A stretch of 64,000 bases of DNA from an uncultured Pelagibacteraceae bacterium (GTDB lineage Bacteria; Pseudomonadota; Alphaproteobacteria; Pelagibacterales; AG-422-B15), in assembly GCA_902578305.1 (NCBI GenBank), contig CACHCK010000001.1:183136-247135 (forward strand), given 5' to 3'. Shown piece by piece: positions 491 through 27,570 of this stretch. The stretch's first letter is position 1. The number at the start of each line of letters is the position of its first letter. Position numbers and translations under genes: made by a program. The notes under the pieces are model-generated. The model was not told the origin of the DNA, did not search any database, and saw only the letters and a list, made by a program, of their open reading frames with translations.

Positions 491-1324
491 GTGAAAAATT
501 TTAAAATATTAATAATTGGGTTCGTAATAAGCGCAATATCTTCAATGGCATTTGCTGACGGCCATTGGTCAAAAATTAGAATTGGTACGGAAGGCGCATA
601 CGAACCATGGAACTTTACGGATGCATCAGGAAATCTTGTTGGTGCTGAGCTAGATCTTGCAAGAGATCTTTGTAAGAGAATGAACGCAGAATGTGAGTTC
701 GTTCAACAGGACTGGGATGGAATCATTCCAGCATTAGTAAACGGTAAATATGATGTAATCATGGCAGGTATGTCAGTGACTGAAGAAAGAAAAAAAACGA
801 TTAGTTTTTCTAAAGCTTATATGACAGAACCAGCTAGATTTTTCACACTTAACAGTTCACCGTTAAGTACTTTTACCTCAGCAAAAAACTTAAATCTTGA
901 TGATGAAAGCAGTGCTACTTCTGGTACAATAAGTGCGTTAAATAATGCAATGAAAGGTATGAATATTGGAGTAACTGTTGCGACAATCCACGAGGATTTT
1001 GCAAATAAATACTTAGATTCAAACTTAAAGGTTTATCCGACACAAGACGAAATGAACCTTGATCTTGCTGCTGGTAGAATAGATGCGATGTTATGTGATG
1101 TCGGAACAGCAGAAGCGTTTATGGAAACTTCGGGTGGTTCTAATGTAGTAACTTTTGGTCCAAATGTGTTTGGAGGACTTTTAGGTGAAGGTGTTGGCGC
1201 AGGTATCAGACAAGGAGACGCTGATCTTAAAGCAATGTTTGATAAAGCAATAGCTGATGCGGCTGCTGATGGAACAATTTCTAAAATATCAATGCAATGG
1301 TTTGGTAAAGACCTAGCACCGTAA
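491..1324 (+). CDS. Polar amino-acid ABC transporter periplasmic substrate-binding protein (His/Lys/Arg/Orn/octopine family)
   Basis: GTG start 6 nt after GGAGGA (479-484). It has a signal peptide, and its core IRIGTEGAYEPWNF...DLARDLCKRM...DWDGIIPALVNGKYDVIMAGMSVTEERKK is typical of family-3 SBPs. Confidence 0.9.
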   Translation: MKNFKILIIGFVISAISSMAFADGHWSKIRIGTEGAYEPWNFTDASGNLVGAELDLARDLCKRMNAECEFVQQDWDGIIPALVNGKYDVIMAGMSVTEERKKTISFSKAYMTEPARFFTLNSSPLSTFTSAKNLNLDDESSATSGTISALNNAMKGMNIGVTVATIHEDFANKYLDSNLKVYPTQDEMNLDLAAGRIDAMLCDVGTAEAFMETSGGSNVVTFGPNVFGGLLGEGVGAGIRQGDADLKAMFDKAIADAAADGTISKISMQWFGKDLAP

Positions 1325-1342
1325 TTTTGAAATTAATAACGT

Positions 1343-1379
1343 AAAAAAACGGCTGACTAATACTCAGCCGTTTTTTTTT
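1343..1379 (+). terminator. Rho-independent terminator (A-run/stem/T-run, potentially bidirectional)
   Basis: CGGCTGA (1350-1356) pairs with TCAGCCG (1364-1370). A 7-A run precedes the stem and 9 T (1371-1379) follow it. Confidence 0.8.
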
Positions 1380-1391
1380 ATATAAATAAAT

Positions 1392-2105
1392 ATGTTTGAA
1401 GTATTTTCCTTTGGTTCATCTGGATGGGGAGATGAGATGCTTATGGGCGCACTGATGACAGTTCTTGTAAGTGCGTCATCTTTACTTTTAGGTATTCTGA
1501 TAGGAATTATTTTTGCTGCATGTAAACTATCAAATATTTTTATTCTAAAAATAGTAGCAAATACATACACAACAATAATAAGAGGCATACCTGAGCTTTT
1601 AGTCATATATCTTCTTTTTTTTGGTGGCAGTGGCGCAGTTATGTATATTGCTAAAATTTTTGGTTATGATGGTTATATTGAACTGAATGCATTTACAATT
1701 GGCACAATTGCTGTTGGTGCAATTTCAGGGGCTTATTCTACAGAAGTCATTCGAGGTGCGGTTAACTCCGTTCATAAAGGGCAGTTTGAGGCAGGTAAAA
1801 CACTTGGATTAAATGGATATGGTCTCTATGGAAAAGTAATATTCCCACAAGTTGCAAGAATTGCACTGCCAGGTATTGGTAATGTGTGGCAAATTACACT
1901 TAAAGATACCGCGCTCATTAGTGTTACAGGGTTAGTTGAAATTATGCGACAGTCGCGTATTGCTGCGGGCTCGACACATGAACCATTTATATTTTATACG
2001 GCTGCAATTATTCTGTATTTGGTAATTACCAGGCTTTCTAACATTTTATTTGATAGGGCTGAAAATACTTACTCTAAAGGTTTTGTATCTAAGGGGGCGC
2101 TATGA
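1392..2105 (+). CDS. Amino-acid ABC transporter permease (HisQ/OccQ-like)
   Basis: Multi-TM protein with the EAA-type loop AGKTLGLNGYGLYGKVIFPQVARIALPGIGN. Confidence 0.9.
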   Translation: MFEVFSFGSSGWGDEMLMGALMTVLVSASSLLLGILIGIIFAACKLSNIFILKIVANTYTTIIRGIPELLVIYLLFFGGSGAVMYIAKIFGYDGYIELNAFTIGTIAVGAISGAYSTEVIRGAVNSVHKGQFEAGKTLGLNGYGLYGKVIFPQVARIALPGIGNVWQITLKDTALISVTGLVEIMRQSRIAAGSTHEPFIFYTAAIILYLVITRLSNILFDRAENTYSKGFVSKGAL

Positions 2106-2785
2106 GATTTGAATTAATGTATGAGTCATTTTTCAAAATAATTGAGGGTATTCCTCTTACATTACAAGTGGTTTCTATTTCAACAGTACTCGGACTAGCA
2201 TTAGCAATAATCGTTGCATTGATGAGAATTTCTGGCAAAAAATCAATGTCAATTCCAGCATATTATTTTGTCTATTTAATTAGGGGGACACCTCTGTTAC
2301 TGCAGTTGTATTTTGTTTATTATGGTCTTGGTCAATTTTCATTTATTCGAGAAAGTATATTATGGCCAATTTTAAAAGAGCCATATTGGTGCGGTATCAT
2401 TACACTGACTATCAGCACTGGTGCTTATTCCTCTGAAATAATTCGAGGGGGTATCCTTTCTGTGTCTAAAAATTTTATAGAAGCATCAGGAGCATTAGGA
2501 CTGAATAAAATTAAGACATTTCTGCTAATTACACTTCCAATTACCGTACGACAAGCATTACCAGCTTATGGTAATGAGTTGATATTAATGGTTAAAGCCA
2601 GTTCGTTGATTTCAATTATCACGCTCATGGAAATTACTGGAATAGCTCGAACTATAATCTCAAAAACCTATGCACCTGTTGAAATATTTTTAGTAGCGGG
2701 ATCAATATATTTAATTATCAACTTCATTATCGTTTTAGCTGTTGGGTTAGCGGAGAGAAAATTAGGAACAGTGAAAGCTAATTAA
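2102..2785 (+). CDS. Amino-acid ABC transporter permease (HisM/OccM-like)
   Basis: 4-nt overlap with the previous permease. EAA loop ASGALGLNKIKTFLLITLPITVRQALPAYGNE. Confidence 0.9.
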   Translation: MRFELMYESFFKIIEGIPLTLQVVSISTVLGLALAIIVALMRISGKKSMSIPAYYFVYLIRGTPLLLQLYFVYYGLGQFSFIRESILWPILKEPYWCGIITLTISTGAYSSEIIRGGILSVSKNFIEASGALGLNKIKTFLLITLPITVRQALPAYGNELILMVKASSLISIITLMEITGIARTIISKTYAPVEIFLVAGSIYLIINFIIVLAVGLAERKLGTVKAN

Positions 2786-3251
2786 TTACTTTTTGGAAGG
2801 CATATTCAGTTGTATTGCTTATGTCATTTAACTTTCTTGTTTTTGACATTTTTTTATAATTTAATTTTTTATACATTTTGTGAGCTTCCTTGAATCTAGT
2901 ATCAGTCCATAGCACTATCTTTCTTTTTTTATATTTCTTTGCAATACTCTCAATCCTTAACATTAGTTTTTTTGCCAGGCCCTTCATTCGATAATTTTTA
3001 TCTATATATAGCTTATGTATTTCTAAGTTATTTTTTTTATATGGTAGATAACCCATGCATCCGATAATTTTATTTTTATCAACATATACCCAGAACTTTC
3101 CTTTTTTATTTTTAAAGTAAGAATAAACATCTCTTAACTCTGGAGAGTCGTTGTCTACATCAAGGTAGCAATTTTTATAATCCTTAAAACACCTTTTGAT
3201 TAAGTTGATTATTTGATTTCCGTCTTTATTTCTTGCTAGTCTTAGTTGCAT
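2778..3251 (-). CDS. GNAT family N-acetyltransferase
   Basis: 157 aa. The acetyl-CoA motif region is HKLYIDKNYRMKGLAKKLMLRIESIAKK. Confidence 0.8.
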   Translation of the reverse strand: MQLRLARNKDGNQIINLIKRCFKDYKNCYLDVDNDSPELRDVYSYFKNKKGKFWVYVDKNKIIGCMGYLPYKKNNLEIHKLYIDKNYRMKGLAKKLMLRIESIAKKYKKRKIVLWTDTRFKEAHKMYKKLNYKKMSKTRKLNDISNTTEYAFQKVIN

Positions 3252-3272
3252 AATGTTAGATTATAAGACTCT

Positions 3273-4085
3273 ATGAGCTATTTTCATAATAAAAGAATTT
3301 GGGTTACGGGCGCTTCATCTGGCATTGGCCGATCAGTTGCAATTAAGCTATCAAAATTAGGTGCAGAAGTAATATTAACTGCGCGAAATAGAGATAAATT
3401 AGAGGAAGTAAAAAAAGAATGTGGAAATGCAAAGGCGCATATTTTTGATCACGATCTCTCAAAGTTGGAGTCCATTGATGATTTAGTCAATAGAGTTACC
3501 CGTGAGGTGGGTTCAATAGATATACTCTTTAATAATGCTGGAGTATCTGCATATTCTGCGGCAAATGAAACAGATTTTAATGTTTATACACAAGTTATGA
3601 ATCTAAATTTTCTCTCTGTTGTTAAATTAACTAAGTGTTTGCTTCCACAAATGATATTAAATAAAAAAGGTCAGATAGTAACGAATACCAGTTTGTCTGG
3701 AAAATTTGGATCAAAAAAAAGAACTGTTTACGCTTCATCAAAACATGCATTGCACGGTTTTATGGACTCACTTCGAGCTGAAGTTCATGAACATAATATT
3801 AAAGTTAATACAGTCGCTCCAGGATTTGTTAACACTGAGATAGGTATGAAAGCCTTAACTGGAGATGGCACTCCTTATGGCGCTAATGATAGAGGTCATG
3901 AAAGTCAAGGCATGGATTTGGATAAAGCCTCAGAAATGATTATTAAATCAATAGAGGCAAATAAAAGAGAAGCTTATATTGTTCCTAGAATAAGCTTTCC
4001 AAAAATAGCATTATATATATCAAGATATTTCCCTGGTTTAGGAGCTATTATTGCTCGTAATTATAATGAAGAGGATAACGGCTGA
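3273..4085 (+). CDS. Short-chain dehydrogenase/reductase (SDR)
   Basis: TGASSGIGRS cofactor motif, NNAG, and the catalytic YASSKHAL (YxxxK). Confidence 0.9.
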   Translation: MSYFHNKRIWVTGASSGIGRSVAIKLSKLGAEVILTARNRDKLEEVKKECGNAKAHIFDHDLSKLESIDDLVNRVTREVGSIDILFNNAGVSAYSAANETDFNVYTQVMNLNFLSVVKLTKCLLPQMILNKKGQIVTNTSLSGKFGSKKRTVYASSKHALHGFMDSLRAEVHEHNIKVNTVAPGFVNTEIGMKALTGDGTPYGANDRGHESQGMDLDKASEMIIKSIEANKREAYIVPRISFPKIALYISRYFPGLGAIIARNYNEEDNG

Positions 4086-4673
4086 TTATTGATTTTTTAA
4101 ATATTCAACAAGAAATTTCATACTGTCAATGCCCCAATACATTTCATCATCGATGTAAAATGTTGGTACTCCAAACGCTCCTTTATTAATAGCAAATTCA
4201 GTATTTTCTCTTAATTTATTTTTAATTTCATCACTTGAAATTCCTTCAGCAAAACTATTTGCATCCATTCCAGACTCAGTAGCGACTTGGGTCAGAAGTT
4301 CCTGATCATTAAGATTCATTGCTTTTGTCCAAATAGACTCAAACATAACTTGCATGTAATTTTCTAAAATATCATTTTTTTGGGCTAAGACCGCCCCTCG
4401 CATGTGAGGCACTGTTAATATAGGAAAATAGGGATTCATCTTAAATGGAATACTGAGTGTTTTTGTCCAACGAGTAATATCTTTAAACATATATTCCCCC
4501 TTTTTTTGGACAGTTGCAGGCGGTTGATTTCCTGTAGCCTTAAATATTCCTCCCAACAGAACAGGCATAATTTCAATTTCTGCTCCTTCGTCTTTAATTA
4601 CTTTAAGATTATTGTACGCTAGGTAGGAGTAAGGACTTCCAAAATCAAAGCAAAATGTTACGTTTTTAGACAT
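4086..4673 (-). CDS. DsbA-like thioredoxin-fold protein, 2-hydroxychromene-2-carboxylate isomerase family
   Basis: The N-terminus MSKNVTFCFDFGSPYSYLAY and the C-terminal GAFGVPTFYIDDEMYWGIDSM are typical of the family. The ORF track starts 8 codons earlier (4697); the family-like start at 4673 is preferred. Confidence 0.8.
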   Translation of the reverse strand: MSKNVTFCFDFGSPYSYLAYNNLKVIKDEGAEIEIMPVLLGGIFKATGNQPPATVQKKGEYMFKDITRWTKTLSIPFKMNPYFPILTVPHMRGAVLAQKNDILENYMQVMFESIWTKAMNLNDQELLTQVATESGMDANSFAEGISSDEIKNKLRENTEFAINKGAFGVPTFYIDDEMYWGIDSMKFLVEYLKNQ

Positions 4674-4714
4674 ATATAATGCTATAAATATAAACAATTA
4701 GATCAAATAGTAAA

Positions 4715-5851
4715 ATGAAGATTGTAGTAATAACCGGTGAAGAGTCTGGCGATAAATTAGCCGCATCAGCCATAAAAGAACTGAAAAAAATTTCAAATGA
4801 GCCTCTTAAAATTTTCGGTATTGGTGGAAGAGCCCTTGAAAAAGAGGGTATTCAAAAATTTTTTGATATATCAGAAATTAACGTGATGGGATTAATTGAA
4901 GTTATTCCTAAGATATTTAAAATAAATCGCATAATAAAATCAGTGGTTAATCAAATTATTAAACTTGATCCTGATATTATTTTCACAGTTGATAGTCCGG
5001 ATTTTACATTGAGAATTGCTGAACGGATAAAAAAACGAAACAATAAATTAAAAATTCTTCATTATGTGGCTCCTAGCGTTTGGGCATGGAGGCCTGGACG
5101 TGTCCATACAGTAAAAAAATCAGTAGATCACTTGCTAACAATTCTACCCTTTGAGAAGAAAATATTTGAGAAATATGAAGTGCCGACAACTTTTGTAGGT
5201 CATCCGATAACAGAGATAAATATTGAAAACTTTAAAAAAAATCAAATTACTGAGGGAGACAGAGAAGTTATCTTAATTTTACCGGGAAGTAGAAAAAAGG
5301 AAGTTGTATCTCTTTTACCAATTTACTTAGAAGTAATAAGGGCCATGAAGTTAGATGACAAGTATGAGCTTGTAATGCCACTTACAAAAGAAATGACTTT
5401 TTATGTAGAAGATATCTTAAGTCAATTCGGTTTACAAAATACAATAAAAATAATTCTAGATGAGCATATTAAATACTCTTATTACTATCATGCAAAACTT
5501 GGTATTGTGACCTCAGGGACTGCAGCTTTAGAAGTTTCATATTTTAATACACCATATGTGACAGCATATAAATTCAATCCTGTAACCTATTTTATACTGC
5601 AATTTCTTATTAAAACTAGAATGGGTAATTTGATTAATATTATACAAGGGAAATTTATCATTCCTGAACTGCTACAAAGTAAAAGTAATAAAGATAATAT
5701 TATGTATTATTTAAATAAATTTTTAGATGATAATGATTACCTTCAAGAAGTTTTATCAAATGCAAGTGAAGCTACTGCGAAACTCAAATCTCAAAGCACG
5801 CCAAGTATAATGGCAGCAGAAAAAATTATTCAGATAGTTAATGAAAAATAA
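4715..5851 (+). CDS. lpxB: Lipid-A-disaccharide synthase
   Basis: MKIVVITGEESGDKLAA..., VAPSVWAWRPGR and ILPFEKKIFEKYEVPTTFVGHP are classic LpxB motifs. Confidence 0.9.
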   Translation: MKIVVITGEESGDKLAASAIKELKKISNEPLKIFGIGGRALEKEGIQKFFDISEINVMGLIEVIPKIFKINRIIKSVVNQIIKLDPDIIFTVDSPDFTLRIAERIKKRNNKLKILHYVAPSVWAWRPGRVHTVKKSVDHLLTILPFEKKIFEKYEVPTTFVGHPITEINIENFKKNQITEGDREVILILPGSRKKEVVSLLPIYLEVIRAMKLDDKYELVMPLTKEMTFYVEDILSQFGLQNTIKIILDEHIKYSYYYHAKLGIVTSGTAALEVSYFNTPYVTAYKFNPVTYFILQFLIKTRMGNLINIIQGKFIIPELLQSKSNKDNIMYYLNKFLDDNDYLQEVLSNASEATAKLKSQSTPSIMAAEKIIQIVNEK

Positions 5852-17269: not shown

Positions 17270-18721
17270 ATGGAAAATAGCAATCATTTTAATGTAATTG
17301 TAATTGGCGCTGGAATCTCGGGTATAGGAGCTGGATATTACTTAAAAAAAAATTGTCCTAATAAATCCTTTTGTATTATTGAAGGGAGAGAGAATATAGG
17401 CGGTACATGGGACTTATTTAAATATCCAGGAATAAGATCAGACTCTGATATGTTTACACTCGGGTATGCATTTAAGCCATGGAAAGAGCAAAAAACAATT
17501 GCAAACGGACCTTCCATCTTAAGTTATTTAGAAGAAACAGTTGAAGAAAATAATTTACGCGAAAAAATAAAATTTAGTCACAAAGTCTTAAGCGCAAACT
17601 GGAATTCAGCAGAGCGAAATTGGGAAGTAAGAGCTGCTCATCATGAGCAAGAAATATTATTAACAGCAAATTTTCTATTCATGGGGACAGGATACTATAA
17701 TTATGATGAAGGATACACACCTGAATTTGACGACCTAGACAAGTACGAAGGTAAATTAATACATCCTCAAAAGTGGCCTGAAGATTTTGACTACACAGAT
17801 AAGAAAATGGTTGTTATCGGTAGTGGCGCAACAGCAGCAACTATAGTTCCCGAACTATCAAAAAAAGCTAAACACGTAACGATGTTACAACGCTCACCAA
17901 CATATTATTTTCCAAGTCCAGATGAAGATAGATTTGCAAATTTTTTAAAAAAAGTTTTACCACAAAAAATGTCTTACACGCTTGTTAGGTTACGAAATGT
18001 ATTCTTTCAGCAGCTTCTCTACAGAATTTGTAGATCATATCCAAAATATGTAAAACGAAAGCTCATAGATGGAGTTAAAGAATTATTGCCTAATCACGAT
18101 ATTTCAAAACATTTTACTCCGCGATATTATCCATGGGAACAGAGAATGTGTCTTATTCCAAATGGCGATTTGTTTGAGTCCATAAGAGACAATAGAGCGT
18201 CAGTCGTTACAGATCATATCGATAAGTTTACTAGCAAGGGAATAAAGCTTAAATCAGGGCAAAATATTGAAGCTGATGTTGTCGTAACTGCTACAGGCTT
18301 AAACTTACAATCTTTTGGTGGTGTCCAAGTTCATATCGACGGCAAATTGGTCGAGCCTTCTGAAACAATGACTTATAAAAGTATGATGTTCAGCGGTATT
18401 CCAAATTTCGTAAATTCTTTTGGTTATATTAATGCATCTTGGACCTTGAAAGCAGATTTAACCTGTGAATATGCTTGTAGATTAATTAATTATCTTGATC
18501 AGAATAACTACAGTCATTGTGTACCAAGGGTTCCAGTGGATGTGAAAGCTGAAAAAGATTGGCTCGCGACTGAGTTTTCCTCAGGATATATACATCGAGC
18601 TATTCATTTATTCCCCCAACAAGGCAGCAGGTCACCATGGATTAATACACAAAATTATTTTAAAGATTTCTTTGGTATTAAATTTGGCCGACTAAACGAC
18701 GATTCTATTCATTTTTCTTAA
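17270..18721 (+). CDS. Flavin-containing / Baeyer-Villiger-type monooxygenase
   Basis: VIGAGISGIGAG (FAD), GGTWDLFKYPGIRSDS, a fingerprint-like YEGKLIHPQKWPE, and a second GSGATA (NADPH) motif. Confidence 0.85.
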   Translation: MENSNHFNVIVIGAGISGIGAGYYLKKNCPNKSFCIIEGRENIGGTWDLFKYPGIRSDSDMFTLGYAFKPWKEQKTIANGPSILSYLEETVEENNLREKIKFSHKVLSANWNSAERNWEVRAAHHEQEILLTANFLFMGTGYYNYDEGYTPEFDDLDKYEGKLIHPQKWPEDFDYTDKKMVVIGSGATAATIVPELSKKAKHVTMLQRSPTYYFPSPDEDRFANFLKKVLPQKMSYTLVRLRNVFFQQLLYRICRSYPKYVKRKLIDGVKELLPNHDISKHFTPRYYPWEQRMCLIPNGDLFESIRDNRASVVTDHIDKFTSKGIKLKSGQNIEADVVVTATGLNLQSFGGVQVHIDGKLVEPSETMTYKSMMFSGIPNFVNSFGYINASWTLKADLTCEYACRLINYLDQNNYSHCVPRVPVDVKAEKDWLATEFSSGYIHRAIHLFPQQGSRSPWINTQNYFKDFFGIKFGRLNDDSIHFS

Positions 18722-20361
18722 GCGTCGGCGGCTTTAGCCATTTCTCTCAGTTCGTATTTTAATATCTTACCTGTTGAAGTTTTTGGCAGTTCAGTAAAAA
18801 CGACTTTTTTAGGACACTTAAAACCAGCAAGAGTTTCTTTACAAAACGAAATAATATCGCCTTCACTCACGCTATCATTTTGATCTTTTAATTCGATAAA
18901 AGCACATGGTGTTTCACCCCATTTTTCATCTGGTTTTGCAACCACTGCAGCAAATAATACAGATGGATGTTTATAAAGTGTATTTTCTATTTCAACTGAT
19001 GAGACATTTTCACCACCAGAGATAATTATATCTTTACTTCTATCTTTTATTTGAATGTAACCATTAGGGTGCATTACAGCCAGATCACCTGAGTGAAACC
19101 AGCCTCCTGCCATAGCTTTATCTGTTTCTTCCTTATTTTTTAAATATCCCTTCATTACACAGTTGCCGCGTATCATGATCTCACCTATTTCTTCACCGTC
19201 ATTCTTGACGTACTCCATAGTCTCAGGGTTCATAATTGCTAGACCATCCATCATCGGAAACTTTACGCCCTGCCTTGATCTAAGCTTTGATTGTTCTTCA
19301 ACTGATAGCTCATTCCATTCATCCTGCCATGCGCATAATGAAATATGTCCGTATGTTTCAGTCAGTCCATAAACATGAGTAACGTCAAAACCCATTTTTT
19401 GAACCGCTTCTAATGTGGCTGCGGGTGGAGGAGCTCCTGCTGTGACTACATATACTTGTTGAGAGTATTCTCTTTTTTCCTCAGCTGTTGCTTGTGCTAG
19501 AAAATTTAGAACAATTGGTGCGCCACCAAAATGAGTTACTTTATGATCTGCAATAGCATCAAACATATTTTTAGCTGAAACATATCTAAGGCATACACTC
19601 GTGCCTGCTAGGGCTGTAAGTGTGTAGGGATTACCCCAACCATTACAATGAAACATTGGAACAACCCACATATAAGTAGGATGCATTGGCATACTAAAAG
19701 CAGTAACAGATCCAAGTGCCATCAAGTACGAGCCTCTGTGATGATAAACAACCCCTTTTGGTAATCCAGTGGTGCCTGACGTATAATTGAGCGCTAATGA
19801 TTGCCATTCATCATCTGGCAAACTCCATTCGAGATCACTGTCACCTGTTAAAAGAAAATCCTCATAATTAATTTCTCCAAGATTTTCTCCAGCTCCCTCA
19901 GGATGATTTGCTAGCTCATCATCAATATCTATTACAAGAATTTTATTTTTTATCTTATCGAGTACTTGTTTTATCGTCGGTGAAAGCTCATTGTCAGTAA
20001 TCAATGCTTTTGCTTCACCGTGCTCAAGAATATAGCTAATTGTATCTACATCTAATCTGATGTTTATCGTATTTAATACAGCGCCAATCATCGGAACACC
20101 AAAATGTGTCTCATATATTTCAGGAGTATTAAAACAAAGAACCGCAACAGTATCTCCCTTTCCTATACCTCTTTTAGAAAGTGCGCTCGCAAGTTGTTTG
20201 CTTCTTTTATATGTTTCAGACCATGTAAATTGTTTTTTGCCATGTATAATCGAAGTTCTATTTGGATAAACTTCCGCTGCTCGTATGAGAAAACTTAAAG
20301 GAGACAACGGTGTAAAATTTGCATCGTTTTTGTCTAAATTGGTATCATACATGTGAGCCAT
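18718..20361 (-). CDS. AMP-forming short/medium-chain acyl-CoA synthetase
   Basis: YTSGTTGLPKGV, YGLTETYG, GWFHSGDLA and KTSTGKILK motifs. It overlaps the convergent monooxygenase by 4 nt. Confidence 0.9.
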   Translation of the reverse strand: MAHMYDTNLDKNDANFTPLSPLSFLIRAAEVYPNRTSIIHGKKQFTWSETYKRSKQLASALSKRGIGKGDTVAVLCFNTPEIYETHFGVPMIGAVLNTINIRLDVDTISYILEHGEAKALITDNELSPTIKQVLDKIKNKILVIDIDDELANHPEGAGENLGEINYEDFLLTGDSDLEWSLPDDEWQSLALNYTSGTTGLPKGVVYHHRGSYLMALGSVTAFSMPMHPTYMWVVPMFHCNGWGNPYTLTALAGTSVCLRYVSAKNMFDAIADHKVTHFGGAPIVLNFLAQATAEEKREYSQQVYVVTAGAPPPAATLEAVQKMGFDVTHVYGLTETYGHISLCAWQDEWNELSVEEQSKLRSRQGVKFPMMDGLAIMNPETMEYVKNDGEEIGEIMIRGNCVMKGYLKNKEETDKAMAGGWFHSGDLAVMHPNGYIQIKDRSKDIIISGGENVSSVEIENTLYKHPSVLFAAVVAKPDEKWGETPCAFIELKDQNDSVSEGDIISFCKETLAGFKCPKKVVFTELPKTSTGKILKYELREMAKAADA

Positions 20362-22028
20362 TAAAACAATCCCTCTATGTCGCCATTTTTATTTAAGTGT
20401 ATAGCATTTGCAGCTGGAACTCTAGGCAGACCTGGCATAGTCATAATCTTATCGCATACAACTACAAGAAATTCTGCACCCGCTGCTAGTCTAACTTCTC
20501 TGATAGGAACTACATGGTCTTTTGGAGCGCCTCTTAGATTTGGATCAGTTGAGAAGCTGTATTGAGTTTTAGCTACACATATTGGGTAATGGCCATATTT
20601 TTCCTCCAAGTCGTCAAACTGCATTCTTATTTTTTGGTCAGCAATAATATCGCTCGCTCCATATATTTCTTGTGCAATTTTTTTCATCTTATCCCACAAT
20701 TTCATTTCGTCCGGATACAGGTGCTTTATCTTTGGAGCATTTTGCTCAGTAATTTCTACTATGTGCTTTGCTAGGTCCTCTGTGCCTACACCACCATTGC
20801 TCCAATGTGTGCAATTAAATGACTTTACATTTAATGAATCACAGCAATCACTGATTGCTGACAACTCTTTTTCACTGTCAGATATGAAATGATTAATTGC
20901 AACTGTAACAGGCGCCCCATATATTTGCATATTTGCAATGTGCTGCTTTAAATTTGATAAACCATTTTTTACAGCTTCAACATTTTCATTTTTTAATTCT
21001 TTTTTATCCATACCGCCATGCATTTTTAACGCTCGAACTGTTGCAACTATTACTATTGCTGAAGGATTTAATTTTCCTTTACGGCACTTTATGTCTAAAA
21101 ATTTTTCTGCTCCAAGATCTGCACCAAAGCCTGCTTCTGTTACAACATAATCACTTAATTTAAGAGCAGTTTGAGTAGCAACTAAAGAATTGCATCCATG
21201 GGCAATATTTGCAAAAGGACCCCCATGAATGATAGCAGGATTTTTCTCCAGTGTTTGAACAAGATTAGGTAAGAAAGCATCTTTTAGCAAAGTAGTCATC
21301 GCGCCGTCTGCATTTAAGTCTCGCGCCGTAATTTCTTTCTTCTCCCTTGTATAACCAACAATGATATTCCCAAGTCTATTTTGTAAATCGTCTAAACTTG
21401 TAGATAAACAAAAAATTGCCATCACTTCAGATGCAACAGTAATATCGAATTTATCCTCACGTGGGTATCCGTTGGCTATACCGCCTAAATTAACATTAAT
21501 ATTTCTTAAAGCACGATCATTTAAATCTACAACACGTCCCCAAACTACTCTTCTTGTATCAATTCCTAAATCGTTTCCCCAATAAATATGGTTATCAATC
21601 ATCGATGCAAGTAGGTTATGTGCTGATGTGATCGCATGGAAATCACCTGTGAAATGTAAATTAATTTTATCCATTGGTACTACTTGGGCGTAACCGCCTC
21701 CTGCAGCACCCCCTTTGACACCAAAGCAAGGCCCTAAACTAGGTTCTCTCAAGCATACCAATGACTGTTTTCCAATTTTATTTAAGCCATCACTGAGACC
21801 GACTGATGTAGTAGTCTTTCCTTCGCCTGCTGGGGTAGGTGAAATGGCCGTCACTAAAATGAGTTTTCCGTTCTTGTTATTACTTTCTATATGTTGAGTA
21901 TCAATTTTAGCAATGTGGTGCCCAAATTTTTGGAGATTTTGATCTTTTAAGTCTAATTTTGAAGCAATTTCTTCAATAGGAGCCATGCTATTTTCTCTAG
22001 CAATTTCAATATCTGAGAGTACAGCCAT
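20361..22028 (-). CDS. fhs: Formate-tetrahydrofolate ligase
   Basis: LSDIEIA..., [14 protein letters not shown] and [14 protein letters not shown]. Start moved to [10 protein letters not shown] (22028); the 10 extra codons in the ORF track are not family-like. The stop overlaps the next start as TAATG. Confidence 0.95.
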
Positions 22029-22145
22029 AAATAAAACTAATATTAAAAACCTAGACAACTTAAGAACTTTACAGATAGGAGTCTACAAAAATGTATTGCT
22101 ATAGAACAAATTTTTACTTAAATTTTGTTTTAGGAGACTCAAATA

Positions 22146-22195
22146 GCGCTGCAAAATTAAGCCAAGCAGTGCAATTGAAAATTCGCGTGGCTTAA
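22146..22195 (+). promoter_or_regulatory. Candidate H-type pseudoknot RNA in the leader of the metF-like operon
   Basis: Stem 1 is GCGCTGC (22146-22152) with GCAGTGC (22166-22172). The stem-1 loop segment TTAAGCCA (22157-22164) is perfectly complementary to TGGCTTAA (22188-22195), which lies 24 nt before the ATG. Confidence 0.4.
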
Positions 22196-22218
22196 GCGGT
22201 ACACTCATTTACAGCATT

Positions 22219-22959
22219 ATGGGAAATGTAAATTTTTCATTGGAAGTTACTACAAGAACAAATCTGTCTGATTTGCCTAAACTTAATGACATTTATATTA
22301 CATTTTTGCCTGGCACAAGTTATCTTGACGTTATTGAGCAAACCAAGGCGTTAGCTAGTGCAGGTTATAATCCCATTCCTCACTTTCCAGCTCGTTCAAT
22401 TACTGATTCAGATATGTTAAAATCATATATAGAGCAAGTTAAAGAGGCTGGAGTTAAACAAGTTTTAATAATTGGTGGCGATCGAGATATTTTAGGAAAA
22501 TATCATTGTTCACTACAACTTATAGAAACTGGATTGTTTGATGGAATGAAAATAGGTATTGCTGGTCATCCTGAGGGATCTCCAAATATGAGCGATGCAG
22601 CTATTGAAGAAGCAATGAAATCAAAGGCCCCATTTGCTGACTATATTGTAACACAGTGGACACAAGATACAGACGCATTATCGTCTTTTATTTCTGGAGC
22701 ACCACTTCCTGTTCATGTAGGTGTTGCGGGCCCGGCTTCTATGAAGACACTAGTAAAATTCGCTGGATTTGTTGGATTAAAGAATACGCTTAATTTCGCA
22801 AAAAAAAATGCATCTAAAATTTTTGATTTATTGACTGTTCAGACACCTGATGATGTAATTCAAGAATTAAAAGAGAACGTTGAACATTTTCACATTTATG
22901 CGTTTGGTGGAATAAAAAAAGCAAACGAATGGTTAGAAAAGGAGAACTACTATGTCTAA
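22219..22959 (+). CDS. Methylenetetrahydrofolate reductase (MetF)-like protein, short form
   Basis: Collinear with MetF landmarks: FSLEV..R (SFEFFPPR), PHFPAR (PHLTC), LIIGGD (ALRGD), IAGHPEGSP (AAYPEVHPE), VTQWTQD (ITQFFFD) and HFHIYAFGG (FHFYTLN). Confidence 0.75.
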   Translation: MGNVNFSLEVTTRTNLSDLPKLNDIYITFLPGTSYLDVIEQTKALASAGYNPIPHFPARSITDSDMLKSYIEQVKEAGVKQVLIIGGDRDILGKYHCSLQLIETGLFDGMKIGIAGHPEGSPNMSDAAIEEAMKSKAPFADYIVTQWTQDTDALSSFISGAPLPVHVGVAGPASMKTLVKFAGFVGLKNTLNFAKKNASKIFDLLTVQTPDDVIQELKENVEHFHIYAFGGIKKANEWLEKENYYV

Positions 22960-24295
22960 AAAAATAGAACATAACACTACTGTTGATCAAAGCGACAGAC
23001 ATGTTCCTTACAATTTACGCCAAAGTGGACCAACAAAAGTTGAAATGTTGATTTCAACTCGAGTGAGAAAGTCACCATATTGGCATAAGTCGATGGAGGC
23101 AGGATGCTGGAGAGCAACAGTTTATAACCGCATTTATCATCCCAGAGGTTATGTAAAGCCTGAAGATGGTGGAGCAATGGTTGAATATGAAGCAATTAAA
23201 AATCATGTGACTATGTGGAATGTTGCAGTTGAGAGACAAATACGTGTAATTGGTCCAGATGCTGAAAAATTTACAGACTATGTAATTACAAGGGATGCCA
23301 CAAAGATATCACCATTACGAGCTAGGTATGTAATATTATGTAACTATAAAGGTGGAGTCTTAAATGATCCTATTCTCTTAAGAATCTCGAAAGATGAGTT
23401 TTGGTTTAGTTTGTCAGACTCAGATATTGGACTTTATTTGCAAGGCGTAAACGCTGATAAAAGATTTGATGTGGAAATTGACGAAATTGATGCGTGCCCT
23501 GTTCAAATTCAAGGACCAAAAGCCATTGCCTTGATGAAAGACCTAGTGGGTGATCAAGTTGATCTTGATAATATTCCTTTCTATGGTTTAGCAGAAGTTA
23601 AAGTTGGTGGAAGAAGTTGTGTGATTTCTCAAACTGGTTTCTCTGGCGAGTCCGGTTATGAAATTTATTTACGAAATGCGACGCTCTATGCCGACGATAT
23701 GTGGGATGCTGTTTTAGAAGCAGGCAAGAAACATAATCTAATGGTTATAGCACCTGCTCACCACAGAAGAATACAAGCAGGTATTTTATCCTGGGGTCAG
23801 GACTTAGATCATGAGCACAATCCTTTTCAATGTAATCTTGGTTATCAGGTTTCTTTATCTGGAAAAGGTGAGTGGGCGAAAAAAGGTGATTATATCGGTA
23901 AGCAAGCGCTTGAAAAGATGAAGGCTGACTTGAAAGATGGTCATAAGCCATACAAGTTACAATTGGTGGGATTTGAGATTGGTGGCAAACCAATTGATGA
24001 GTATGCACCTGATTTTTGGCTTGTGTCTCCTGGTGACGGTGGAGACCCATGTGGCTTTATTACTTCACCTTGGTATCATCCTGAAAAAGGAAAAAATATA
24101 GCTATGGGTTATATACCTTTTGATGGAACTCTTAATCCAAATGGTTTTCCAAAATGGGAATTAGGTAAAAAATTTAAAGTTCATTTACCTGATATTTATG
24201 CTGATGAACCAGGAGTGCCAGTAGACGCCGTAACAGTTGATGTTCCGTTTACTGAGTCTTTCAACGCTAATACAAGAGAAGTTGTAAAGGGCTAG
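22952..24295 (+). CDS. GcvT-family THF-dependent aminomethyl/methyl transferase (demethylase, substrate unknown)
   Basis: RKSPYWHKS...TVYNRIYHP...VTMWNVAVERQIRVIGPDAEKF...GGVLNDPILLR...ISQTGFSGESGYEIY. 8-nt overlap with the metF-like gene. Confidence 0.85.
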   Translation: MSKKIEHNTTVDQSDRHVPYNLRQSGPTKVEMLISTRVRKSPYWHKSMEAGCWRATVYNRIYHPRGYVKPEDGGAMVEYEAIKNHVTMWNVAVERQIRVIGPDAEKFTDYVITRDATKISPLRARYVILCNYKGGVLNDPILLRISKDEFWFSLSDSDIGLYLQGVNADKRFDVEIDEIDACPVQIQGPKAIALMKDLVGDQVDLDNIPFYGLAEVKVGGRSCVISQTGFSGESGYEIYLRNATLYADDMWDAVLEAGKKHNLMVIAPAHHRRIQAGILSWGQDLDHEHNPFQCNLGYQVSLSGKGEWAKKGDYIGKQALEKMKADLKDGHKPYKLQLVGFEIGGKPIDEYAPDFWLVSPGDGGDPCGFITSPWYHPEKGKNIAMGYIPFDGTLNPNGFPKWELGKKFKVHLPDIYADEPGVPVDAVTVDVPFTESFNANTREVVKG

Positions 24296-24350: not shown

Positions 24351-24845
24351 TTAGGATTTGTGTTGTACGTAAAGTTGGTGATAGCAAACTTTACCATTTT
24401 TTTCTATGAAGTCTTGGTGGTATTCTTCAGCAGGCCAAAATTTAGCATTCTCTCTTAATTCTGTAACTACTTCGTTTTGATGTTCGCCTGAGTTATTAAT
24501 TTCATCAATTTTGCTTTCCGATATTCTTCTTTCTTCATCAGAATTACAAAAAATAACTGATTTGTATTGTTCACCAATGTCTGGACCTTGACGATTCATC
24601 TGAGTTGGATCATGAATAAAGAAAAACTTGTCTAACAATTCCTCAAACTTTACTTCACTATTATCATACTCAATCTCAACAACTTCAATGTGTCCTGACT
24701 TACCTGTACAGACTTCTTCGTATGTAGGGTTTTCTGTATGCCCGCCGGCATACCCTGAAATTACTTTTTTAACGCCAGACATTTCTTCAAAAAGAACTTC
24801 TACTCCCCAAAAACAACCTGCGCCTAGTATTAACTTTGAAATCAT
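24351..24845 (-). CDS. msrA: Peptide methionine (S)-sulfoxide reductase
   Basis: LGAGCFWGVE active-site motif, GYAGG, and HDPTQMNRQGPDIGEQYKS. Confidence 0.95.
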   Translation of the reverse strand: MISKLILGAGCFWGVEVLFEEMSGVKKVISGYAGGHTENPTYEEVCTGKSGHIEVVEIEYDNSEVKFEELLDKFFFIHDPTQMNRQGPDIGEQYKSVIFCNSDEERRISESKIDEINNSGEHQNEVVTELRENAKFWPAEEYHQDFIEKNGKVCYHQLYVQHKS

Positions 24846-24920: not shown

Positions 24921-26066
24921 ATGAATAATCAAGATATAAGCATTGGTAAACTCTCAAGGTTAAAGATCTGGATAACTGATAATCATCTGTCTGATGATCA
25001 ATGGTCAAATACAAAAAAATTTATCATCATAAAAATAACTACTGAAGATGGAATTGAAGGTTGGGGAGAAGCATTCTCTATTAATCTTAGAGAAAAGGGT
25101 ATTGCGATTATTATAAAAGAGCTATTTAGAGAAATTTCGAATATTCCAAATCTATCAATAAAGTCTTTTTATAATAAAATTTCATTGTTAAGTGATGGTC
25201 ACAGAGGTTTAGATTTCAGCTCTGCTTCAAGTGCCATTGAAATTGCATTATGGGACATATCAGGGAAGTTAAAAAATCTTCCTTTAAATTCTTTACTAAC
25301 AAAAAGTCCCAAACCAAATGTTCCCATTTATGCTACGTGTTGGAGCGATTTAAAAAAAGACACAAATGACTATTTGAGACAAATAGAAAAATTTTATGGA
25401 AAGAAATATGGGGGGATCAAGATATATCCAATGCTAGATAACGTATCAATTTCAATTCAGTTTGTTGAAAAAGTTAGAGAAATAGTAGGAGATGAATTAC
25501 CGCTAATGCTTGATTTAGCTGTACCTAAAGATTTAGATAAGACAAAATCTTTTTTAAAAGAAGTATCGTCATTTAATCCTTACTGGATAGAAGAGCCTGT
25601 TGATGGTGAGAATATAAAATTACTTACTGAGATCAAAAATGCTTTTAATATGAAAATTGTAACAGGTGAAAAGCAATCAGGCTTGGTCCATTTCAGAGAA
25701 TTAATACACAGAAATGCAGTAGATATATTTAATCCTGATATTTCAGGTATGGGCGGACTCATTGATATTATCACGATATCAAATGAAGCATCAAATAATG
25801 GCATCTCTATTTCTCCACATTGCTGGAATTCAATGTCCGTTTCAGCATCTGCGATGCTTCATGTTTGCTCAAGTATTTCTAATTCAGAAAAGGCTGAAAT
25901 ATTTCCAGATTATATAAACTTTTCAAAGAAATTTTGTGAGTTACCTTTTGATATTGTAGATAATAAAGCACATATAAATAAATCAGCTGGACTTGGTATA
26001 GTTATTCATGAAGATATTTTATCTCGGTTGAGTATTTATTCATTGGATGAAAAGAGTAATGACTGA
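24921..26066 (+). CDS. Enolase-superfamily enzyme (mandelate racemase/muconate-lactonizing family)
   Basis: GWGEAF in the capping domain; barrel positions KIYP, MLDLAV, IEEPV, TGEK and FNPDIS. Confidence 0.85.
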   Translation: MNNQDISIGKLSRLKIWITDNHLSDDQWSNTKKFIIIKITTEDGIEGWGEAFSINLREKGIAIIIKELFREISNIPNLSIKSFYNKISLLSDGHRGLDFSSASSAIEIALWDISGKLKNLPLNSLLTKSPKPNVPIYATCWSDLKKDTNDYLRQIEKFYGKKYGGIKIYPMLDNVSISIQFVEKVREIVGDELPLMLDLAVPKDLDKTKSFLKEVSSFNPYWIEEPVDGENIKLLTEIKNAFNMKIVTGEKQSGLVHFRELIHRNAVDIFNPDISGMGGLIDIITISNEASNNGISISPHCWNSMSVSASAMLHVCSSISNSEKAEIFPDYINFSKKFCELPFDIVDNKAHINKSAGLGIVIHEDILSRLSIYSLDEKSND

Positions 26067-27570
26067 ATCAAACTATCTATTTGATGAAATATTCAAATCT
26101 AACGAAACGAGTCCAAATATTTTTTTGATCAATGAAACTAAAGAGATAAGTTACTTAGAATTCAATGAAATTGTAAATCAAATTTCTAATTACTTAATAG
26201 ATATAAATTTATTACCAGGTGACCGCGTGGCCATACAGGCAGAAAAGAATGTAATTCAACTTGCTACATATGTAGCAACCGTTAAAGCTGGTGGTGTTTA
26301 TCTGCCACTCAATACTGGCTATACCCTAAGTGAATTAGAATATTTCTTCAATGACGCCAAACCTAAGGTGATAATTGTCGATGACAAAATTCAAAATGAA
26401 GTAAAAAACTTAGTGAGCTATTCTTCGGTTTCAATTTTATCATTAAATTTAGATGAAACTGGTTCATTGATTGAGCAGATAAAAAAATATCCAAAAAAAT
26501 TTCAATCTATTAAAAGAAACGAAAATGACTTAGCTGCCATTTTATATACATCCGGTACTACTGGAAAATCAAAAGGAGCGATGCTATCGCATAGAAATTT
26601 GGTTTCAAATTCTGAAGTTTTAAGAAAATTTTGGAAATTTACAGAAAATGATGTTCTTTTACATATGCTACCTATTTACCATACGCACGGTCTTTTTGTT
26701 GCATGTAATCTTCTTGCAATTGTTGGAGGATCAATGATTTTCTTGGAAAAATTTGATACTGAAAAAGCCTTGCTTTGGATGAAAAGAGCCACATCCATGA
26801 TGGGCGTGCCAACTTTTTATACAAGATTGTTGGCAAATGAAAAATTAAATAATAAGTCAGCAAAACACATCAGACTATTTATTTCTGGTTCAGCACCTTT
26901 ACTATCAGAAACTCACATTGAATTTGAAGAAAGAACTGGTAAAAAAATTCTTGAGAGATATGGCATGACAGAAACAAATATGAATATTTCAAATCCATAT
27001 GACGGATTACGAAAAGCAGGTACAGTGGGCATACCTCTTCCAGGCATTGAAATAAGAATAGTCAATGAAGAAGGCAAGGAAGTTGAAGAGGGTCAAATAG
27101 GGACTATTGAACTTAAGGGCGAAAATATTTTCAAGGGGTACTGGGGAATGGAAGAAAAGACCAAAGAATCATTTAAAGATGATGGTTTCTTCATAACAGG
27201 TGATCTCGCAAAGAAAGATGAAAATGGCTACTTTACTATTGTTGGTAGAGATAAAGATATGATTATAAGCGGTGGACTAAATGTTTATCCTAAGGAAATA
27301 GAAGACGTGATAAACGAGTTGCCAAATATCACAGAGTCAGCAGTTTTTGGTGTTCAACATGATGATTTTGGCGAAGCAGTTGTTGCGGCAGTAGTGACAA
27401 CAGATGATAAAAATGACGGTAGTCAAATATTGGATTATACAAAAAATAAAATTGCTAAATATAAACAGCCAAAAAAAATAATATTTATGTCGAATTTACC
27501 TAGAAATTCTATGGGCAAAGTTCAAAAAAATAAATTGAGAGAAAATTATAAAAGTTTATTTAAGAGTTAA
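26047..27570 (+). CDS. AMP-dependent acyl-CoA ligase (MatB/malonyl-CoA synthetase-like)
   Basis: YTSGTTGKSKGAMLSHRNL, YGMTET, FFITGDLA and MGKVQKNKL. It overlaps the enolase-family gene (start 26047 or 26059). Confidence 0.9.
   Translation: MKRVMTESNYLFDEIFKSNETSPNIFLINETKEISYLEFNEIVNQISNYLIDINLLPGDRVAIQAEKNVIQLATYVATVKAGGVYLPLNTGYTLSELEYFFNDAKPKVIIVDDKIQNEVKNLVSYSSVSILSLNLDETGSLIEQIKKYPKKFQSIKRNENDLAAILYTSGTTGKSKGAMLSHRNLVSNSEVLRKFWKFTENDVLLHMLPIYHTHGLFVACNLLAIVGGSMIFLEKFDTEKALLWMKRATSMMGVPTFYTRLLANEKLNNKSAKHIRLFISGSAPLLSETHIEFEERTGKKILERYGMTETNMNISNPYDGLRKAGTVGIPLPGIEIRIVNEEGKEVEEGQIGTIELKGENIFKGYWGMEEKTKESFKDDGFFITGDLAKKDENGYFTIVGRDKDMIISGGLNVYPKEIEDVINELPNITESAVFGVQHDDFGEAVVAAVVTTDDKNDGSQILDYTKNKIAKYKQPKKIIFMSNLPRNSMGKVQKNKLRENYKSLFKS

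Follow-up and report, generated by a model that had tools for sequence, protein, structure and literature searches.

Identification of a conserved structured leader RNA

The 64,000-nucleotide stretch of DNA analysed here (the window) contains a divergent spacer between fhs and a metF-like gene, in which a short hairpin carries in its loop a segment complementary to a stretch nearer to the start codon. The question raised by this locus was whether these complementarities belong to a folded RNA in the leader of the metF-like operon and, if so, what such an RNA might sense or bind. The genes on the two sides of the spacer are the following:

18718-20361, minus strand: acyl-CoA synthetase gene, after fhs (Pfam and NCBIfam)
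20361-22028, minus strand: fhs, formate-THF ligase (Pfam and NCBIfam), in the divergent operon 18718-22028
22219-22959, plus strand: metF-like gene, 246 aa (Pfam and NCBIfam; Pfam MTHFR 7e-7)
22952-24295, plus strand: gene of a DmdA-like GcvT-family aminomethyltransferase, 447 aa, overlapping the metF-like gene (Pfam and NCBIfam)

Domain and structure matches agreed with the first-pass annotation that the downstream genes are one-carbon genes. The closest solved structure to the MetF-like protein is 7XG9 (2e-34), the methyl-THF-oxidising MTHFR of Sphingobium SYK-6, which works with THF-dependent demethylases (PMC11868366). The 447-aa aminomethyltransferase is closest to 3TFH, the DmdA of P. 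ubique (1e-45), and scores below the DmdA equivalog cut-off. From these assignments the genes look like one module, in which a methyl group would be passed to THF, methyl-THF would be oxidised, and formate and ATP would be recovered. SAR11 reportedly has neither MetH nor MetE (PMC12478193); recycling of its folate would then require that methyl-THF be oxidised.

The ATG of the 246-codon metF-like ORF is at 22219. The divergent spacer is 190 nt long (22029-22218) and not 160 nt as first annotated, because the conserved start of fhs is the minus-strand ATG at 22028, as indicated by an alignment of the N-termini across lineages, and not the upstream TTG at 22058 (minus strand) to which the ORF lister extends this gene. 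Within the spacer, reading out the sequence located both complementarities where they had been described. GCGCTGC (22146-22152) faces GCAGTGC (22166-22172) over 7 pairs, one of them G.U, and arm 1, TTAAGCCA (22157-22164), which lies within the 13-nt loop, has a perfect complement in arm 2, TGGCTTAA (22188-22195). In RNA form, the arms read UUAAGCCA (arm 1) and UGGCUUAA (arm 2).

The exact arm pair with a gap of 10-40 nt occurs once in the window and in 0 of 100 shuffles. The chance expectation of the general pattern, defined as a stem of at least 7 pairs with a loop having an 8-nt perfect complement within 45 nt downstream, was estimated from dinucleotide shuffles of the AT-rich spacer. This pattern was found in 267 of 20,000 shuffles (1.3%), and any 8-nt inverted repeat within the spacer in 21% of them. 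At a chance level of 1.3%, the sequence of the window alone is suggestive only, and it is the comparative data that make the pattern significant.

Conservation and distribution of the motif

The comparison included 49 distinct leaders from about 80 Pelagibacteraceae loci, with proteins 74-100% identical and synonymous sites saturated. The loci came from three sources. A genome scan with the MetF-like protein gave 42 Pelagibacteraceae loci, more distant orthologs (74-77% identity) added 12 more, and metagenome DNA was scanned with 6 of the 8 positions of each arm left free. With this latitude, the metagenome scan returned 30 true copies, all with identical arms and with the same gene downstream, 8 evident chance matches in GC-rich coding DNA, and no variant arms. 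A looser pattern run against viral contigs gave only two matches, both by chance and inside genes. In the protein-based sampling, which is unbiased, the motif was present in every ortholog of 74-100% identity. The aligned leaders are organised as follows:

22144-22152 (5' strand), 22153-22165 (13-nt loop AAAA-UUAAGCCA-A) and 22166-22174 (3' strand), plus strand: P1 hairpin, from covariation
22150-22168, plus strand: invariant block 1, UGCAAAAUUAAGCCAAGCA, 19 nt, comprising the top of P1 and the whole loop with arm 1; identical in 49 of 49 leaders
22175-22183, plus strand: A-rich linker (loop 3 of the putative pseudoknot), variable in sequence and nearly fixed in length
22184-22198, plus strand: invariant block 2, CGCGUGGCUUAAGCG, 15 nt, including arm 2 at 22188-22195; identical in 49 of 49 leaders
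22199-22218, plus strand: A/U-rich spacer of 16-23 nt, unconserved in the alignments

For comparison, only 5% of the third codon positions of the adjacent metF-like gene are invariant, and its longest invariant run is 11 nt (16 representative lineages). In every lineage arm 2 follows arm 1 at an offset of 30-32 nt, despite the free sequence of the linker. Judged from these alignments, the region 22132-22201 encodes a conserved structured element of roughly 67 nt in the 5' leader of the metF-like/aminomethyltransferase mRNA.

A covariance model built from the motif (R1) gave 92.7 bits at 22132-22201, whereas nothing else in the 64-kb window exceeded 12 bits. Among the 96 loci searched, each motif-bearing locus has exactly one copy, at the same position, all other matches being reverse-strand echoes of it. 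The motif always lies upstream of a methyl-THF-oxidising MetF-like gene with a DmdA-like demethylase gene, and divergent from fhs. The layout with the acyl-CoA synthetase and fhs on one side and the MetF-like protein and aminomethyltransferase on the other was found at every protein-retrieved motif-bearing locus with gene calls.

The P1 hairpin

The 7-bp stem that was first noticed is the upper part of a P1 helix of nine pairs, in which A22145 and A22173 are mismatched in the window. The comparative alignment gave clear support to this stem, as compensatory changes were observed in 6 of the 9 pairs and 89% of the cells are paired in the 49 leaders. The number of cells changed on both sides was 38-61, compared to 14-32 in shuffles, and 0 of 500 shuffles reached the observed value; P1 is in this respect a genuine helix, as stem 1 of an H-type pseudoknot would have to be. 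When the 3' partners of P1 were shifted along the sequence (slid controls), the covariation collapsed to far lower values. P1 can thus be regarded as established.

The upper stem occurs as GCGCUGC/GCAGUGC or ACGUUGC/GCAACGU, the lower part changing freely and staying paired. Further strand pairs among the leaders are GAGUAUUGC/GCAAUACUU and GGUGUUGC/GCAACAUU, and the variant GAACCUUGC/GCAAUGGUUC has a bulged U. Six positions of P1 accommodate G·U or U·G pairs. Read on the opposite strand, or from an antisense RNA, each would become an A·C mismatch, and the helix therefore belongs to the plus-strand RNA.

The second helix

The complementarity between the loop and the 3' segment is kept without exception, all 8 pairs being present in 49 of 49 orthologous leaders. 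A loss of either complementarity without compensation was looked for in these leaders and was not found: P1 is compensated and the arms are intact. Neither side of the arm 1:arm 2 pairs ever varies in the 49 leaders, and the covariation signal is hence zero; as both 8-nt arms lie inside invariant blocks, the pairing is perfectly kept, yet there is no variation by which covariation could appear. The two frozen blocks are the only ones of the leader, and 8 nt of one are complementary to 8 nt of the other. Within 3 kb, neither arm 1 nor arm 2 has a further partner that is conserved; this includes a TTAAGCCA inside fhs.

In the folded form, loop L1 would have 4 nt across the 8-bp helix, L2 1 nt, and L3 about 12-14 nt across the 9-bp helix. 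By the general geometry of pseudoknots, loops of such lengths can span helices of 8 and 9 bp, and are sterically compatible with an H-type fold. These loop lengths, the complementarity of the two frozen blocks, the near-constant arm offset and the lack of another conserved partner support the second helix indirectly. The CGC and GCG flanking arm 2 might form a 3-bp stem P2 (RNAalifold), extendable by U22183.G22199. The next pair outside P2 is a standard one in 23 of the 49 leaders and U·U in 25, and at this next pair one double change is seen between sister lineages (A-U in L082 versus U.G in L087). Since this stem is predicted around arm 2, the element may be an intramolecular kissing-loop complex and not a plain H-type knot. 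The alignments suggest one of two folds, an H-type pseudoknot or an intramolecular kissing-loop complex, the latter if the CGC/GCG stem forms too. The AAAA, A, CGCG and GCG beside the arms are frozen as well, which argues for more than pairing, for instance a ligand pocket or a protein contact surface.

The first-pass annotation had proposed either a pseudoknot or two mutually exclusive hairpins acting as a switch. The pairing common to both proposals is kept in all leaders, but the second was wrong as worded, because P1 and the arm helix have no nucleotides in common. Nested alternatives of another kind can be drawn: arm 1:arm 2 extended by UGC:GCG, which competes with P1, or P1 with a small CGC/GCG hairpin that encloses arm 2. 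An additional helix P0, in which GACU of AGGAGACU would pair with the NGUC that precedes CGCG, was rejected, as it can form in some lineages only and is mismatched in the window's own lineage.

Transcript context and start-codon region

The sequences around the element that may define the transcript and its translation start are the following:

22096-22101 and 22119-22124, plus strand: putative leader promoter, from conservation only, with -35-like TTGCTA, a 17-nt spacer and -10-like TAAATT
22132-22138, plus strand: AGGAGAC, nearly invariant in the 49 leaders, about 7 nt after the -10-like box
22219-22240, plus strand: predicted start-codon hairpin AUGGGAAAU-GUAA-AUUUUUCAU, -4.9 kcal/mol in the window

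The -35-like TTG (TTGYNN) and the -10-like TA[AG]ATTT are conserved with fixed spacing in 16 divergent lineages, and the putative promoter is below the threshold of a consensus promoter scanner. AGGAGAC is probably at or near the 5' end of the mRNA, as suggested by its position; it may be a Shine-Dalgarno (SD)-like standby site, a weak P0 partner or a DNA word. From the conserved promoter-like boxes and AGGAGAC, the mRNA probably starts at about 22132, which gives a predicted leader of 87 nt with the element about 15-25 nt from the predicted 5' end.

Other words are conserved in the spacer DNA. CTAGAC (22051-56) and GTCTAC (22081-86) form an inverted pair, AAAAATGTATTG runs into the -35-like box, and CTTAAG is found at 22059-64 and again within the palindrome GCTTAAGC (22190-97). 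These words may serve fhs and the metF-like operon as promoter or regulator sites.

No SD sequence was found before the start codon in the aligned leaders, the A/U-rich spacer having no GGAG-like word, and no terminator or attenuator was found in the leader. The start-codon hairpin is predicted in each of the 17 distinct CDS starts, with energies between -4.5 and -4.9 kcal/mol. Substitutions in its stem are solely A to G opposite U, and its loop and the synonymous sites downstream are variable. Since about 9% of synonymous recodings fold equally well, the evidence for this hairpin is weak; it is a possible expression platform according to these predictions. Blocking the arms in silico shifted the accessibility of the initiation region little and inconsistently, and no conserved alternative pairing was found between the aptamer-like fold and the initiation region. 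The synonymous sites +13 to +23 of the metF-like gene are invariant, in a gene in which third positions are otherwise saturated.

Pairing of the 3' part of the leader with the coding sequence from +22 to +60 was considered as a conserved feature and rejected, as it is strong in three lineages only; it is at background level in the window's lineage, and the mean z-score was -0.86 against other CDS windows. At the three loci concerned (L021, L063 and L086), codons 9-20 of the metF-like gene (+25 to +59) show strong complementarity to block 2 and the linker, at -18 to -19 kcal/mol, and the codons used there are GC-rich ones that are rare in the genome (ACG CGG, AGC CUG). The mini-ORFs UUG/CUG-CAA-AAU-UAA and GUG-GCU-UAA were likewise discarded as leader peptides, since inspection revealed no conserved start or suitable SD spacing.

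Comparison with known RNA families

The first-pass annotation had pointed to SAM-sensing pseudoknots and folate-sensing RNAs as possible relatives. The element was compared to Rfam 15 by scanning the whole window at the gathering threshold, the region 22000-22300 (301 nt, cmscan) at E<=10 and four variant loci at E<=5. It does not belong to SAM-II, SAM-V, SAM/SAH, THF-I or THF-II/folE, none of which matched in any Rfam scan, permissive thresholds included. Similarly, the ZTP covariance model gave no match in the window scan, at E<=10 in 22000-22300 or in the four variant loci. The scans of the window region and of the variant loci returned noise only, namely a CRISPR repeat and snoRNA models.

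The element resembles SAM-II (RF00521) and SAM-V (RF01826), which are small H-type pseudoknots in alphaproteobacterial 5' leaders (PMC6061858, PMC2704228), SAM-V occurring in Pelagibacter itself (PMC2704228). In both families a hairpin loop pairs with a 3' segment near the start codon and control is translational (PMC6061858, PMC2704228). Their hallmark is a U-rich loop-1 strand, the U.A-U major-groove triples of which with the second helix form the SAM pocket (PMC6061858), whereas loop 1 is an invariant AAAA here and not a U-rich triplex strand. In both families a Shine-Dalgarno sequence adjoins the knot (PMC6061858), in SAM-V directly 3' of the pseudoknot and occluded by helix P2a, whereas here an A/U-rich gap of 16-23 nt without SD separates GCG from AUG. 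The genes also differ from those of SAM-II, SAM-V and SAM/SAH, being involved in methyl-THF oxidation and demethylation and not in methionine or SAM synthesis.

As with THF-I (RF01831) and the THF-II/folE motif, the genes downstream are folate/one-carbon genes, and this context makes a reduced folate plausible as the ligand. THF-I folds into a three-way junction that includes a pseudoknot, and THF-II into a single irregular hairpin. The architecture of the present element differs from both, no model matched, and those RNAs control folate transport or biosynthesis and not methyl-THF catabolism. The ZTP riboswitch (pfl motif, RF01750) is a pseudoknotted sensor of one-carbon stress that often controls fhs, folD and purH. 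A point in common is that fhs lies on the divergent side of the spacer here. The element itself, however, is directed towards the metF-like operon, and the conserved sequences are unrelated. Guanidine-II (mini-ykkC), one of the loop-loop (kissing) RNA switches, consists of two hairpins with complementary loops, an arrangement that a bound ligand can stabilise. The present element would share the two hairpins with complementary loops only if the CGC/GCG stem forms, and it differs in its 8-bp loop-loop helix formed by non-identical loops in one RNA, in the absence of ACGR tetraloops and in the lack of a model match.

Orphan leader motifs of Pelagibacter (Meyer et al. 2009, PMC2704228) and the ordL 5' UTR (Smith et al. 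2016, PMC5069961) have been described as cis-regulatory or riboswitch candidates. The element is, like these, a conserved GC-enriched leader in an AT-rich, regulator-poor genome, but they are at other loci, their structures are described differently, and none precedes a metF-like or fhs gene. The searchable Pelagibacter RNA surveys and SAR11 one-carbon papers contain no motif from this locus, and none of Meyer 2009, Weinberg 2017, Stav 2019, Sun 2011 and Smith 2016 describes one there. The element would work most like the small pseudoknot riboswitches and belongs to none of them. On the evidence of sequence conservation and of these comparisons, it is a real, strongly conserved and narrowly distributed structured leader RNA that is in no catalogued RNA family.

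Possible functions of the element

The best reading of these data, to which we give an even chance, is that of a new orphan riboswitch-like cis-regulatory RNA of roughly 67 nt, folded as an H-type pseudoknot or kissing loop. That the leader RNA senses a metabolite at all has a chance that is at best even and perhaps slightly lower. The most specific form of the proposal remains tentative and falls short of an even chance: an undescribed, SAR11-restricted riboswitch aptamer that would sense 5-methyl-THF/THF, or a methylated marine osmolyte or its demethylation product, and would gate the MetF and demethylase module.

In such a mechanism, P1 would present the invariant 13-nt loop and the fold would be the putative aptamer. 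A metabolite tied to methyl-group/folate one-carbon flux would bind and stabilise the loop-to-3' helix, the candidate ligands being the methylated compound on which the demethylase acts, or a reduced folate (5-methyl-THF, THF). Once stabilised, the fold would alter the access of the 30S subunit to the SD-less initiation region 16-23 nt downstream, where the AUG lies in a weak conserved hairpin, and translation of the operon might thereby be tuned to the methyl-group supply, either ON or OFF. The most sensible first candidates as ligands are a reduced folate, or the substrate or product of the demethylase.

The covariation of P1, the frozen complementary blocks, their near-constant spacing, the long leader and the coherent methyl-THF gene module all point to a riboswitch, and Pelagibacter relies on riboswitches such as SAM-V and glycine (PMC2704228). 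On the other side, the pseudoknot helix shows no variation, and its invariance could reflect another constraint. There is no SD or terminator to sequester, and the state of the arms hardly alters the predicted accessibility of the initiation region. Nested alternative folds are predicted with similar energy. With the motif limited to a single operon of a single family, the gene-context logic for a ligand is thin.

If the riboswitch reading is true, an RNA sensor in front of a methyl-THF-oxidising MetF and a DmdA-like demethylase would be a testable node in marine one-carbon/organosulfur cycling, gating this module in the ocean's most abundant heterotroph. SAR11 oxidises the methyl groups of DMSP, glycine betaine, TMAO and related compounds globally, with very few protein regulators. 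The ligand could reveal the substrate of the uncharacterised demethylase, or the element could be the first methyl-THF-sensing RNA. Even if it is not a riboswitch, a small RNA of about 67 nt with 34 frozen nt would suit biochemistry and structure determination.

Four other functions were considered and are given here in falling order of likelihood. The first of them, which we regard as unlikely, is that the fold is real and is bound through its invariant loops by a protein; a regulator that represses or activates translation, an RNA chaperone and the ribosome itself would be examples. The invariant single-stranded AAAA, CGCG and GCG and the invariant helix would suit protein recognition and ligand binding equally, a single locus was found per genome region searched, and an SD-like AGGAGAC is present at the predicted 5' end. 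However, the conserved neighbourhood encodes no RNA-binding protein, SAR11 has few regulators and a documented reliance on riboswitches (PMC2704228), and the size and architecture of the element resemble those of small pseudoknot aptamers.

It is improbable that the element is constitutive and does not switch, acting as a 5' stabiliser against RNases or as a standby or translation-enhancing pseudoknot for an SD-less mRNA. Its position close to the predicted 5' end (about 15-25 nt) would fit such a role, as would the lack of an obvious conserved alternative expression-platform pairing. If the element were purely structural, compensated changes should nevertheless be tolerated in its loops and second helix, as they are in P1, and instead 34 nt are frozen.

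Still more improbable is a leader with no pseudoknot that toggles between P1 with the small CGC/GCG hairpin and the long arm 1:arm 2 hairpin extended by UGC:GCG, driven by transcription kinetics, temperature or a ligand. Predicted nested MFE folds do alternate between the two states among lineages, with similar energies of -13 to -17 kcal/mol, and UGC can pair with GCA or GCG, all three being invariant. But the nucleotides of P1 and of the arm helix are disjoint and the loop lengths let both helices coexist, and the long arm 1:arm 2 hairpin is the MFE fold in only a minority of lineages. Such a toggle would in any case be compatible with a riboswitch and can be seen as a variant of the preferred model.

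Finally, it is very improbable that the arms are DNA half-sites, TTAAGCCA ... TGGCTTAA, for a transcription factor at divergent promoters: the inverted repeat is perfectly conserved at nearly fixed spacing, its centres are about 31 bp or roughly three helical turns apart, GCTTAAGC is itself palindromic, and CTAGAC, GTCTAC, AGGAGAC and CTTAAG are conserved too, but arm 1 sits exactly in the loop of a covarying, G.U-using hairpin that is meaningful in plus-strand RNA only, the conserved sequences flanking the two arms are not symmetric (AAAA.. versus CGCG..), the positions are downstream of the inferred transcription start, and the arm offset varies (30-32 nt).

Paralogous loci and neighbouring genes

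Paralogous pairs of MetF-like and aminomethyltransferase genes are found in two other contexts, and no motif was found at either. At loci L053-L056 (about 530-5092), a 57%-identical MetF-like gene and a 456-aa aminomethyltransferase gene are genes 3 and 4 of an operon that starts with a class-III aminotransferase gene and an alanine-dehydrogenase/PNT-like gene, with no motif upstream. At L099 (635-1366) and L042 (2965-5080), the pair is divergent from a Rieske/ring-hydroxylating oxygenase gene and has no RNA motif. In these paralog-type copies a leader of about 12 nt follows a TTGACA-N17-GATAAT promoter that is close to consensus; compared to it, the motif-bearing leader is unusually long for a gene of this family. 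The MetF-like gene of L099 looks recombinant, the first 60 or so residues of its product being paralog-like and the rest about 88% identical to the protein of the window.

The ORFs of the database proteins P0010, P0012 and P0013 (261-288 aa) run through the leader RNA, because they were called from upstream starts. In the window, the neighbouring genes at 17270-18721, 24351-24845 and 24921-27570 comprise those of a flavin-monooxygenase-like protein (below the Tmm cut-off), msrA, an enolase-superfamily (MR/MLE) enzyme and a second AMP-binding ligase. Beyond the aminomethyltransferase, the genes differ by lineage, with GcvT-like and SCO1 genes in L043 and msrA and GcvT-like genes in L048.
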